Part shown: piece after piece, positions 55,401-60,072 of the stretch
Layout: the number at the start of each line of letters is the position of its first letter
Numbering within the stretch: the stretch's first letter is position 1
Assembly (NCBI RefSeq): GCF_017348835.2
Contig: NZ_CP072314.1
Strand: one strand, 5' to 3'
Source of the DNA: Escherichia coli
GTDB taxonomy: Bacteria > Pseudomonadota > Gammaproteobacteria > Enterobacterales > Enterobacteriaceae
Length of the DNA: 60,072 nt
Program-made: the position numbers

Positions 55401-58400
55401 CTTCGCCGCAAGGGGCATCACTGCCACGGCCTGACGCACCTGTCCTGGGCAGAACGCAAAATTTTTTACCGGTTTTTGGGTAAAAAATTTTGTGGGCTGT
55501 TCATTTACCCTGGACAGTCAGTGCGGCAGGTTGTGGCTGTATCAGCCCCCGGCGACAGGGACTCATACGGGTGTGTGGCACCCGGCAGGCAATGAGCAGG
55601 GGCCCGCCGCAACGACGGAGAGCGCGTGCGCGAAACGGCGTTGCCCCTTACATCCCGGCGGCCTTTTGCCGGGATGCCAGGAGCGCAGGCCACGGCGCGA
55701 CAGAGGCGGCGCGACCGGAACGGTCGCTGCAAGCCAGGGTTTCGCGTCAGGGATGGAAGCCCGCCAGGGCGGAGACAGCTTCGCTGGCTCCGTTCACGAC
55801 AGCCCGCCCCGTCAGGGGGACGCCCAGAAAAGCCATAAACAGGAGAGGAACGGAAAGAAGAAGAGGAAAAAGAAGAAGAACAATAACAGGTACGGTAACC
55901 ACAGAAAAATAACATCAGAAAAAAACATTCCGGACACATCACAAACAGGAAGGGTAACGGGCGACGCGTCAGCGTGGCCCGCTTCCCTTCCGGCAGGCGT
56001 CAGCCTGCCAGGGGTTTTCGCGCGAGCTGACAGGCGGCCTCCACCGCCTGCCCCTGTATCACCTGTTTCTGCTGCCCTGAAGGATGTAGTGACCACCGAG
56101 GAAAACAGCCTGCTGATTCACCACAAAATCGCAGATTTCATCAACAATCTGTGCGGTGGTGAGCGGTTTCTGCCCCATTTCACGACGCCGCGCATTAATC
56201 ACGGCCCTGTAATTACGCAGAATTTCGCGGGTTTCTGTGCTGATATTCATGACATGTGCTCCCCGTCCAGCGCCTGTAACACAACGTCCATTGCTTCGCG
56301 TTCCTCCCTGACGAACGCATCACCATCGCCCCCGTTCTCACTCCCGACGGCATACAGGCGCTTCATTTCACTGCCTGCCAGCGCCATCACTTTTTCCAGC
56401 ATCACCGCCGGAACTGTCACCTGACGGCTGGCGCGCTTTTCCTCCATCAGTCCACGAACAACCACTATCCCAATCATACCACTCCCAAATACAAATTCAA
56501 CTTCCTCCTTCATCAATACTTATTCCCTACAACTTCAACCTAACCTACTTTTCAAATATCTCACCACCCCTTTACATCACCTTCCCATCAAACCATATTC
56601 CTACATACACCCTACCCACTTTCAATCAAACAAAAAACATAACCTACCATAACATAACAAAACCTTTCTTTAAATCTTCCTACTAAAAAACCTACCATTC
56701 CTCTAAACAATCTAATCCAAACATTTATCCAAACTCTTATCCTCCACCTCTTCAACTCTCACCTTACATATTTTACTACCTTAACCCTCATACTATTACC
56801 TCCCACCCACATTCTTAACCACCCATTTCACAACTCCATCATCATCTTCACTCTCAACACTTACTTACCCACCCTAATTTCCTAAACCCAATTCCAATTT
56901 ACTCCAACCTTTCCATCATATCCCTCCTGCTCCCCTTACATTCTCGTGTCTTTATTTCATCTACTTCATAGATCCAGATCCGCCCAACAATCACAAACCT
57001 TTTCACCAAAATAAATCCACGCTTTATACACACATCTCCTCCCAATCTCTCTCCTTCACCTCCCATACCTTCCCCCTTACCTTCAGTATCCCATCCCTCA
57101 TTATCACTAACCCACTAGAAACATTACTATCCCCTTGTAGAAGACGTCTCCTACTCCGAATTTCTAACCACTCTTAAATATAACCCAAGTCAGATCGCTT
57201 TTTCGCTTCTCCCATGTTCTTAAACCAATATATCTCTTAGTACCCCAGCCACCCCCTATTTCTCACCTTCATAGTTTCTTCTGTGTGTGTGGTCTGTCCT
57301 CTCCCTTTTTTCACTCATTCTCTTACATCTTCCATTCGATTCTTATCCTTTCTGAATTCTGTTAGTCACTCTTCAATAGGCTGTCTCTTACTCTTATAGT
57401 CCCCCTCCCTCTGTCCCATCGACCTTCTTCCTTTCCTTCTTTTCTCTTATCCTCTTTTTCCCTCTACCCAATTCACCATTACCTCCTCTTAACCTCTTTC
57501 TTTCCCTTACTCAATTCCCTCCATACCTCTCTTCTTTAGTGTCTTAAAATTTTTGACCACACTCTAATCACTACTAGATAATGTAACCATACAACCCCCC
57601 CATAGAACAACCCATCTCAATACAATTATATAAGAGTATTGTATATTCACATACAAAACACCACAAACTACACCGACTCACCCTCTTATTCTTCCCACAC
57701 TATGTGTAGTTCACTGATATTCCCTCCATAACACCCACTCTCACCTAATCTCAGTATCAAATTTTCCCGCCTCTCTCAGAACGCTACTACATAACTCACA
57801 CCTCATACATATATCCCCACCTTAACATACAACCCACCATCAAACTCTACACCAAACAGACCCTAAGATCAGACACACCTCACACCATCACAACCAATTC
57901 AAAACAGACCCTCCATCCCCCTACACACCCCCACCTACACCTCAAATTACACTCTTTACTACCTTAGACTTATCATACCAATAACACACTATATATCACT
58001 CCCCTCCTCCTACCAGATCACTCTCACTCGAGATACCACTCCCATCTCACCCAGATAAGAGTCGCACGATCTCTCATCGCACACTGTGACACTCATGAGT
58101 CTACTAATATAGATATATAGAACATATTTCTTAAAAAACTTAAAACTCAATTCTACCAACTATAGCTTCCTGTTTAACCTCATATAGAACTCTCATGACT
58201 ACCATTTGATACCTACTCCCCTCACAACACCCCCTCCCGTAACATATATTCACCAAAATTCCTAACCTCTCCACAACAAATCGCTACTCACAAGTACATA
58301 TATATACACACCCTACAATAGTAGTATATACCAAATCACAACAAAAGCAGCTACCGATCTTGTAGTATATATAATATATGATCTCTCTCTCACATGAGAG

Positions 58401-60072
58401 AGGTCACACTCTAACTCTCTGTGTGACTATCTGTTATCCCTGTCAACTCTAGGATACTATATCAGTAGATGAGGATATGTATGACACAGCCATGATAGGA
58501 CACAATCATAGACCTGTGTGACCACAGATATTACCCCACCACACCCCCCTCACTCTACCATATAACTGTCACCCACGTGAAACCCAACTCAGCAATTATT
58601 CCCTAAACAGAGAGAGAGAACACTCACACTCGCATAGACCCACACCACCTCCACCATCTATATCTTCCCTGTGACACCCCCACCCAAACTCTCATACCCC
58701 ACTGAATTCCACTCTGTGTCTCCTCTCACCCCTTCTATTCTCACTTGTTATAACCCACTCCTATAACCCCTAGACACCTAGGTACACTATCGATCTGACC
58801 CCCGACCTCTGACACCCACATCCTACCTCCTAATTTACACCCCCCCTCCACATCCCCCACCCCTACAGCCTCATAATTCACGACATCTATGTGTAAATGT
58901 TAGTATCTGTAACTCAATAAACAAACATCACACCTTGTCCAATAACCAATGTCAACAACTTCTCAAAACCAACATAAGAACTATATCCCCCAACCACGTT
59001 ATCAGACTACTACTACCCTACTCATCTATATTTACAGACAACTACTCCATAGTAGTAGATATTAGACTTCTCCCAGACCTCAACTTCTCACATCATGTAC
59101 TTATACCCCAAGTTCGCCTCCAACATATTGCTCTCTCCCACGATCTCTGAGAGTATCTACAACCACATACTATTCTTACCCCCTTAGTGTGATATGGTGT
59201 GTGTGTACCAAAGACTCAAACACGATACAACTCAACCTTTACATCAACATTTCACACAGAAACAATTCTTGTGTCCCGCTGTCGTCTCTCCAGACAACCA
59301 AAATTCTCCACCATTCCAATACTTACACTCTAAAAACCATTGTGTGTGTCTGTGTAGGTAGTAGTCCGACTCACAATTTATATAGAGATAGCGCGCGCAT
59401 GTTTAAGAAACACGTATATCAATACGCACAATACACCCTTTTGTTTCTCGCACATAAAGAGAAGACTCCCCCACCACACACACCAACTCTTAATTTGTAT
59501 AGAATCCAGGCGCAGAGGAATGCCGTACAATCAGAGGATTCTTCCATGTATTCGGCTTTGTCGCTTTCTTACCCTCCACACCCCTCAATTGTCCTTACAC
59601 GGACTAGGATCGGGACTTTCGAACACCACAGGTCGTGAAGGTGTACGATGGAACTGGAGGACACAACAGCTGTTAGTAGACTTTGTTAAAGGGAGGTGTG
59701 TCCCAGGGGAAATATAACTTCACAATATTCCCCAGGGAGGGCCGGCGGTACACTATATGTGGGATATTGACCCTATGTGTCTAATCATATAGCACCGACG
59801 TTATGTGGGTTTGTGTCAGCACGCCCACCAAGTGGCAGGGCACCAAATGAGACGAGAGTACATTAGTTAGAGGGTACGTATGTGGGAGATGGGCGGGCAC
59901 ATGTGATCAATTATCGGAATTTCCAGCAAGTTGTGTGTTATGAGATGGACACTGTCTTGTGGGTTTTTGTGGGGGGGATATGGTGAGGCTGTAGATAATG
60001 TTCCTACATGCCTCACACACCCCCCCCCTCCCTTACCAACCCCCCTACCACCCTGCCATAAATAAGCAGACA

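Follow-up and report, generated by a model that had tools for sequence, protein, structure and literature searches.

The deposited record of this Escherichia coli plasmid is an over-run linear contig of a circular replicon of ~41.6 kb, with long stretches of foreign-looking sequence at both ends. These flanks, one of which includes several hundred bases devoid of G, are not native sequence; they bear no relation to the plasmid, show no coding signal and have the statistics of noise. Very probably, they are noise that was called as bases in long reads, had no support from other reads, and stayed in place because the linear contig of the circular molecule was left untrimmed, although both their origin at the level of reads and the platform, PacBio or Nanopore, are inferred. 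The window analyzed here is the entire deposited GenBank plasmid record of 60,072 bp, and it divides into three parts: a left flank, a plasmid unit with its overrun, and a right flank.

The middle part holds one full native plasmid unit of the IncFII/RepB type (12714-54297, plus strand; 41,584 bp), carrying tra remnants, espT, IS3-family copies, hok/sok, CopA and FinP; all 10 Rfam matches of the window lie within 19-53 kb. The unit matches pPE164 (NZ_CP114129.1), a circular plasmid of 41,684 bp that is near-identical to this core. The first 2,165 bp of the unit (12714-14878, plus strand; pPE164 26517-28683 at 99.9%) recur as a direct repeat 41,584 bp further on, at 54298-56462 on the same strand and at 99.95% identity, and this second copy is the assembly overrun of the circle. 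The copies differ at one base, A at 12717 versus T at 54301, and this mismatch is 4 nt away from where the left junk stops. The end repeats are thus spaced by the length of the replicon, and the closed reference passes from the repeat to what the window has at 14879 and beyond: pPE164 28684-37805, directly 3' of the repeat, equals window 14879-24000 over 9.1 kb at 100% identity. As pPE164 passes from the equivalent of 56462 straight into 14879, the right flank is not the native continuation, and its in-register identity to the expected continuation from 14879 is ~25%, the chance level. The ~100 bp by which pPE164 exceeds the 41,584-bp unit are surplus bases that it carries in a patch of low quality. 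At 41.7-42.2 kb the core and pPE164 differ densely, and we first suspected errors of raw reads on the side of the window, but third-party plasmids side with the window there, and the errors therefore belong to pPE164.

Both junctions are knife-edge, with 99-100% identity up to 12714 and 56462 and chance level past them. They interrupt genes (DUF932 on the left, DUF1380 on the right) and coincide neither with IS ends nor with any other biological border. Across the right junction runs a chimeric ORF (56247-56513, minus strand) in which 71 native C-terminal codons of a DUF1380-family gene are preceded by 17 N-terminal junk codons; it is present in NCBI as QTP27561.1, “DNA methylase (plasmid)”, and an exact-sequence look-up placed it on one contig only, 60,072 bp in length. 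The intact DUF1380-family gene of pPE164 lies at 28468-28890, with the equivalent of the right junction at 28683. Remnants of SMRTbell, ONT, Tn5 or TruSeq adapters did not appear at or near the junctions above the level of shuffles.

The right flank (56463-60072, unstranded) is G-depleted throughout (A 29%, C 33%, G 10%, T 28%) and its composition drifts. A first-pass annotation of the sequence had described a plus strand essentially free of G from ~56470 to ~56925, beginning at the end of the terminal redundancy. Base counts bear this out and place the completely G-free run at 56457-56928 (plus strand; 472 nt, 0 G; A 0.33, C 0.37, T 0.29). Its first 6 nt (56457-56462) are the G-free end of the native sequence, and the run adjoins the end of the 2,165-bp repeat, the second copy of which ends at 56462, with the G-poor flank following from 56463. 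Native sequence in the window goes no further than 48 nt without a G, and the chance of a 472-nt run without G would be ~6e-55 at the plasmid G fraction of 0.232. The same annotation had G returning gradually. G does come back after 56928, but along an irregular rather than a smooth course: counts per 200 nt read 0, 6, 11, 20, 7, 13, 5, 19, 15, 29, 18, 13, 21, 29, 28, 58 and 70, and the last 72 nt of the record are G-poor once more (4 G).

The left end of the record (1-12713, unstranded), which the first-pass account of the flank had left out, is abnormal as well. It is T-rich and poor in A and G (T 42%, A 19%, G 18%), broken up by G-rich/C-poor blocks at 1-160, ~5800-5900, 7300-7600 and 9500-10000, and it ends in a sharp junction at 12713/12714. 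The order of bases in it is nearly memoryless.

Neither flank carries the period-3 signal, domain-bearing ORFs, or RNA or repeat elements expected of native DNA. The period-3 signal-to-noise ratio is 0.63 in the right flank and 0.77 in the left, compared with 2.66 in the core, and the z-score of lag-3 identity is -0.9 in the flank versus +9.2 in the core. What structure there is has another form. Between 56929 and 59500, lag-2 identity is raised (z = +10.7) and lag-1 identity lowered (z = -5.6); dinucleotide repeats in the right flank reach 21.3/kb against an expected 5.5, and 31% of its returning Gs lie inside XYXY motifs, versus 9% expected. In the flank sequence, homopolymers are depleted and base biases drift block by block.

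A known source for this sequence did not emerge from the searches. Searched by blastn, the right flank had no counterpart in PLSDB, in phages or in any complete E. coli genome, and no alignment to native sequence without base conversion came from these collections. Window 1-6000 likewise found no E. coli match, an exact 46-mer of the right flank was absent from viral contigs, and no Pfam domain or Rfam family was matched in the flanks. The lambda-derived control strand used in nanopore sequencing is ~3.6 kb long, and we considered the 3,610-nt right flank as a copy of it; with no phage match and no lambda signal in the alignments, this candidate was rejected.

These results bear on the idea that the flank is genuine DNA, native or engineered, that is physically attached to the plasmid in a share of the molecules or more, so that the missing G would reflect chemistry rather than noise: a G-less cassette, a foreign insert, or a guanine hypermodified beyond the reach of the base-caller. 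Synthetic G-free cassettes of a few hundred bp exist, and modified bases can derail base-callers. However, this is a wild-type plasmid of the pig/EPEC type whose circular relative closes without an insert, a conserved gene is cut mid-ORF by the flank, the abnormality spans 3.6 kb plus 12.7 kb with shifting biases, and the flank has no match in PLSDB, phages or E. coli genomes and no ORFs, domains or RNAs. The G-less transcription cassette was rejected as a specific candidate on composition, context and the lack of a PLSDB match: the C2AT cassette has C:A:T of roughly 2:1:1, compared with 37:33:30 in the G-free run. We consider a genuine origin very unlikely.

The first-pass annotation had offered two readings of the G-free stretch, a bisulfite-like G-to-A conversion or an artefact. 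The second holds up, as the native continuation has been replaced, a gene truncated, and neither a match nor a coding signal found; the first fails on composition, alignments and periodicity. Under such a conversion, whether bisulfite-like or of the deaminase type, native DNA would have had every G (C on the other strand) converted and read as A, and the full loss of one base over 472 nt is indeed what complete conversion would give. As in bisulfite-converted three-letter DNA, one base is nearly absent over hundreds of bases; unlike in such DNA, the product base is not in excess, nothing aligns after deconversion and coding periodicity is not retained. Were plasmid-like DNA converted in this way, it would have A 0.50, C 0.24 and T 0.26, from which the G-free run differs strongly, with too little A (0.33) and too much C (0.37; chi2 = 66, p ~5e-15). 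The core keeps its codon periodicity after in-silico G-to-A conversion (signal-to-noise ratio 2.28), compared with 0.63 in the right flank.

For the alignments, we modeled 12 single-base conversions and 4 single-base deletions and compared the sequences in collapsed alphabets with the plasmid and lambda; the G=A alignment covered both strands of the plasmid as well as lambda, with composition-matched shuffles as controls. Under none of these models did the right flank give a signal above controls against the plasmid or lambda. Positive controls confirm that a relation would have been seen: a simulated converted copy scored 1348-6511 where controls reached at most 86, and this held when 40% error was added; a G-deleted copy simulated at the same extra error scored 936 versus 42; and positive controls at that error level stood at least 20-fold above background. 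In the distant mode of blastn, which was empty for E. coli, plasmids and phages, a pure conversion would show at ~75% identity with E = 0. Restoring G at A positions likewise yielded nothing recognizable: the G=A alignment scored at or below shuffles, and a 34-mer in which each A was written as R (A or G) had 0 matches in 100,044 species-representative genomes and in JGI metagenomes. Smith-Waterman alignments were also run in reduced alphabets (G>A, G>C, G>T, G deleted, RY, SW, KM), of which the two-letter ones were uninformative with that scoring. A G>T signal above simple shuffles disappeared with composition-preserving block shuffles and represents low-complexity T/C matching. For the left flank, a 10-model subset of conversions and deletions revealed no relation to the plasmid; slight exceedances under G>C and G deleted fell within the range of 40 controls and came from low-complexity alignments. 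Since the two contig ends are also biased differently, the left one being T-rich and A-/G-poor, no single conversion accounts for both, and we assign conversion almost no probability.

The same alignments speak to a one-channel dropout on a real template, in which G was deleted or misassigned and the flank would be heavily corrupted real sequence. The G-deleted model comes nearest to the composition of the G-free run, though it is still off (chi2 = 10-12, p ~0.003-0.007), and the return of G resembles a recovering channel. Yet the G-deleted and the G-to-C, G-to-T and G-to-A alignments to both plasmid strands and lambda remain at control level, where the simulated G-deleted copy stood out clearly despite its extra error. 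A template other than the plasmid might have been read, but corruption without indels would keep period-3, and none is seen. A dropout of this kind therefore appears improbable.

We return to noise base calls from long reads as the preferred origin of the flanks. The 2.2-kb overlap, together with resolved IS repeats of 1.3 kb, suggests a long-read rather than a short-read assembly. The assembler would have overshot its starting point by 2,165 bp, producing the terminal redundancy, and each contig end would then have been prolonged by the tails of one or a few long reads that no other read supports, with coverage presumably collapsing at the junctions. Such tails would be low-quality or non-template parts of single-molecule reads, where calls for one or two kinds of base are too few and the skew shifts with position in the read. 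Noise of this kind would overlap no other read, because of which polishing could neither correct nor remove it. The consensus would then be near-perfect as far as 12714 and 56462 and turn to garbage directly past both, and beyond the junctions the sequence indeed resembles neither the true continuation nor any known sequence searched. That both contig ends are abnormal, with different drifting biases, is as expected for independent junk reads.

Elements of this account have precedents. Overlaps of thousands of bases between start and end are typical of Canu and NextDenovo assemblies (PMC6966772), and the ends of over-run long-read contigs are the classic location of read-derived junk (PMC4699355). 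The record resembles over-circularized contigs of long-read assemblies (Circlator Fig. 1a; Canu/NextDenovo), in which a linear contig of a circular replicon has repeated ends and extremities of poor quality. It differs from them in that its ends are unrelated to the true sequence rather than error-rich copies of it, even under very permissive models, and are unusually long, at 27% of the record. In being non-template, skewed in composition and alignable to nothing, the flanks are also like the junk and random reads of the Badread type, which are recognized read classes (PMC6966772), and like PacBio “LQRegion” sequence, which normally goes to scraps (10.1101/611814); long-read data ordinarily contain a small share of junk reads and low-quality regions (PMC6966772; 10.1101/611814). 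Whereas such sequence is normally filtered or trimmed before assembly, these flanks persist in a plasmid record deposited as “complete”, where part of them has been annotated as protein (QTP27561.1).

Some observations run against the junk-read reading. At 12.7 kb plus 3.6 kb, there is much sequence to have survived the standard read trimming of most assemblers; adapter remnants are missing at and near the junctions; the lag-2 alternation in the right flank lacks a mechanistic account; and we found no published description of completely G-free sequencing noise. Corruption of a file in silico, or filler, would also give the same picture. This last alternative involves no sequencer: the sequence would have arisen before deposition, through a consensus bug, during scaffolding or in the handling of files. 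It would sit well with the knife-edge junctions, the nearly memoryless left flank, the lack of adapters and the lack of a match anywhere searched. On the other side, the drifting block-wise biases, homopolymer depletion and excess of dinucleotide repeats are unlike the output of a simple random generator, and both affected sites are ends of an over-run long-read contig, where read-derived junk is classically found (PMC4699355). We give an in-silico origin a small chance.

The G-free flank is an artefact without biological significance, and the value of recognizing it is one of database hygiene. About 16.3 kb (27%) of the 60,072-bp record is non-biological and another 2.2 kb is duplicated overrun, leaving a true replicon of ~41.6 kb, and at least one partly junk-translated protein has entered NCBI nr (QTP27561.1, the first 17 residues of which derive from junk). 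Such records inflate plasmid size statistics, supply false “novel” sequence to genome scans and language-model training, and create spurious protein clusters. They can be flagged automatically by simple signs: a long run without one base, a loss of period-3, and a terminal direct repeat that is located inside the record.

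The part of the window between positions 12714 and 56462 is ordinary E. coli plasmid DNA. It begins and ends with a 2,165-bp direct repeat (12714-14878 and 54298-56462; 99.95% identical), which matches positions 26517-28683 of pPE164 (NZ_CP114129.1), a near-identical circular plasmid of 41,684 bp from a pig isolate, at 99.9% identity; window 14879-24000 matches the same plasmid at 100%. In pPE164 the repeat leads directly into what comes after its first copy in the window, so that the window comprises a single 41,584-bp unit of the circle and 2,165 bp of overrun. All ten Rfam matches, which include CopA, FinP, the traJ 5' UTR, sok, isrC, ALIL, and a group II intron, lie within 19-53 kb, with none in either flank. 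The window spans an entire public record, found neither in the RefSeq set of complete E. coli genomes nor in PLSDB.

Relative to pPE164, a segment of about 19 kb (25896-45164), bounded by inverted 1,260-bp IS copies (24636-25895 and 45165-46424), lies in the opposite orientation; either the IS copies mediated a genuine inversion, or the assembler chose this path through the repeat. Positions of about 1,000-4,200 in pPE164 (about 39,100-42,200 in the window) form a patch with extra bases relative to the window; within window 41,700-42,200 there are 81 differences in 500 nt, 68 of them extra bases in pPE164. Since third-party plasmids side with the window in this patch (98.9% over the full length), and since repA, GNAT, DUF1778, and other genes there are annotated as "frameshifted" in pPE164, the pPE164 record has a low-quality region of its own near its origin.

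Outside this core, the base composition is abnormal. On the plus strand, 56457-56928 contains no G over 472 nt, so the first-pass annotation, which had reported G depletion after the terminal redundancy, was accurate for the file. The run sets in at the exact end of the direct repeat; native sequence goes no more than 48 nt without a G, and at the plasmid G content of 0.232 the probability of a 472-nt run is ~6e-55. G does come back, as had also been described, but its course is irregular (0 to about 35% in 200-nt bins) and it falls again in the last 72 nt. The left flank (1-12713), absent from that annotation, is abnormal as well (T 42%, A 19%, G 18%): its bias differs from that of the right flank (56463-60072), but it is the same kind of non-native sequence, 12.7 kb long, and a search of 1-6000 found no E. 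coli match. By base composition, G-rich, C-poor blocks occur in it at about 1-160, 5800-5900, 7300-7600, and 9500-10000, and the bias shifts block-wise along both flanks. At the outermost ends, 1-57 is G-rich and lacks C, and 60001-60072 is C-rich with four Gs, a bias opposite to that of 1-57; self-BLAST detected no sequence complementarity between the two.

Bisulfite-like G-to-A conversion had been proposed as one reading of the G loss, and both composition and alignment contradict it. Conversion of plasmid-like DNA predicts A 0.50, C 0.24, and T 0.26, against the A 0.33, C 0.37, and T 0.29 of the G-free run (chi2 = 66); composition likewise rejects the G-to-C, G-to-T, and G-deleted models, the last least strongly. 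In alignments of the right flank with both strands of lambda and of the plasmid unit, neither the unconverted sequence nor any of the 12 single-base conversions or 4 single-base deletions scored above composition-preserving block shuffles; the same held for the left flank in a 10-model subset against the plasmid alone. As positive controls, the true continuation was G-to-A converted or G-deleted, with 0-40% random errors added, and scored 936-6511 versus at most 86 for controls. Even plain blastn against the unconverted reference recovered pure conversion at 75% identity (E = 0), and, at E = 1e-164, a conversion that carried another 15% of error. As such simulated copies are detected, the negative conversion and deletion results are informative. 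Distant-mode blastn with the right flank matched nothing in PLSDB, phages, or the full set of complete E. coli genomes, the last also searched in near mode, and an exact 46-mer from this flank is not in IMG/VR. A degenerate 34-mer with every A replaced by R, which would fit the deposited sequence as well as an unconverted source, had 0 matches in 100,044 representative genomes and in JGI metagenomes; neither this probe nor the G-to-A alignment, the deconversion check that the first-pass annotation had suggested, gave recognisable sequence. Two of the three features that define bisulfite-like converted DNA, enrichment of the product base and alignability after deconversion, are thus lacking.

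The texture of the flanks is unlike that of native bacterial DNA and is compatible with base-calling of non-template signal. The median period-3 signal-to-noise is 2.66 in the core, and 2.28 after in-silico G-to-A conversion, whereas both flanks are at the level of white noise (right, 0.63; left, 0.77). The flanks also lack the lag-3 signal that coding DNA gives in the core (z = +9.2), and their few mechanical ORFs carry no Pfam domains. Given its local composition, the left flank is nearly memoryless, with slight homopolymer depletion. In 56929-59500, past the G-free run, neighbouring bases are identical less often than expected (lag-1, z = -5.6), and bases two positions apart far more often (lag-2, z = +10.7). 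Dinucleotide repeats such as TGTGTGTGTG, AGAGAGAGAG, and GCGCGCGC reach 21.3/kb in the right flank versus 5.5 expected, and 31% of the returning Gs fall within XYXY motifs versus 9% expected. This alternation and repeat excess, present in neither the G-free run nor the left flank, may be a base-caller signature.

Both junctions are knife-edge: a comparison in 150-nt tiles with the copy one period away gives 99-100% identity as far as 12714 and 56462, and the shuffled level just beyond. The left junction (12713/12714) lies within a DUF932 gene and the right one within a DUF1380 gene, and neither coincides with an IS end or other biological border. The sole mismatch between the repeat copies (12717 A versus 54301 T) occurs 4 nt away from the left boundary, as would fit a contig edge that had escaped polishing. 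Over the right junction, a minus-strand chimeric ORF (56247-56513) joins 17 initial codons from the flank to 71 native codons of the DUF1380-family gene. Its product is in NCBI nr under the accession QTP27561.1, "DNA methylase (plasmid) [Escherichia coli]"; it occurs on a single contig, whose 60,072 bp equal the window length, and belongs to a 418-member cluster of DUF1380 fragments named "DNA methylase". QTP27561.1 is a spurious protein entry, and its inherited name looks questionable.

The flank is not a real genomic feature, and only the artefact reading, out of the two first offered, stands. Very probably, both flanks arose in assembly and deposition, when the long-read contig of a circular plasmid was left untrimmed and linear; that the reads were long is suggested by the 2.2-kb overlap and by the resolution of the inverted 1.3-kb IS copies. 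The assembler would have run 2.2 kb beyond its start point, and at either end the contig would run on into noise tails from one or a few reads. Polishing would leave such noise unchanged because nothing overlaps it, and near-perfect sequence would turn to garbage at the junction. We found no remnant of SMRTbell, ONT, Tn5, or TruSeq adapters. Channel dropout on an unknown real template, in-silico filler, real exotic DNA, and base conversion together share the small probability that is left.

In every feature tested, the record agrees with a contig that over-ran a circular replicon and ends in junk on both sides, an architecture already documented in general terms. Wick and Holt reported that Canu and NextDenovo leave start/end overlaps of thousands of bases, and they count junk and random reads among the standard read classes (PMC6966772); PacBio data include an "LQRegion" class that as a rule goes to scraps (10.1101/611814). 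Only three aspects are unusual: junk makes up 27% of the record, the loss of G is complete, and a junk-derived N-terminus has reached the protein database. The relevance of the finding is low and limited to database hygiene.
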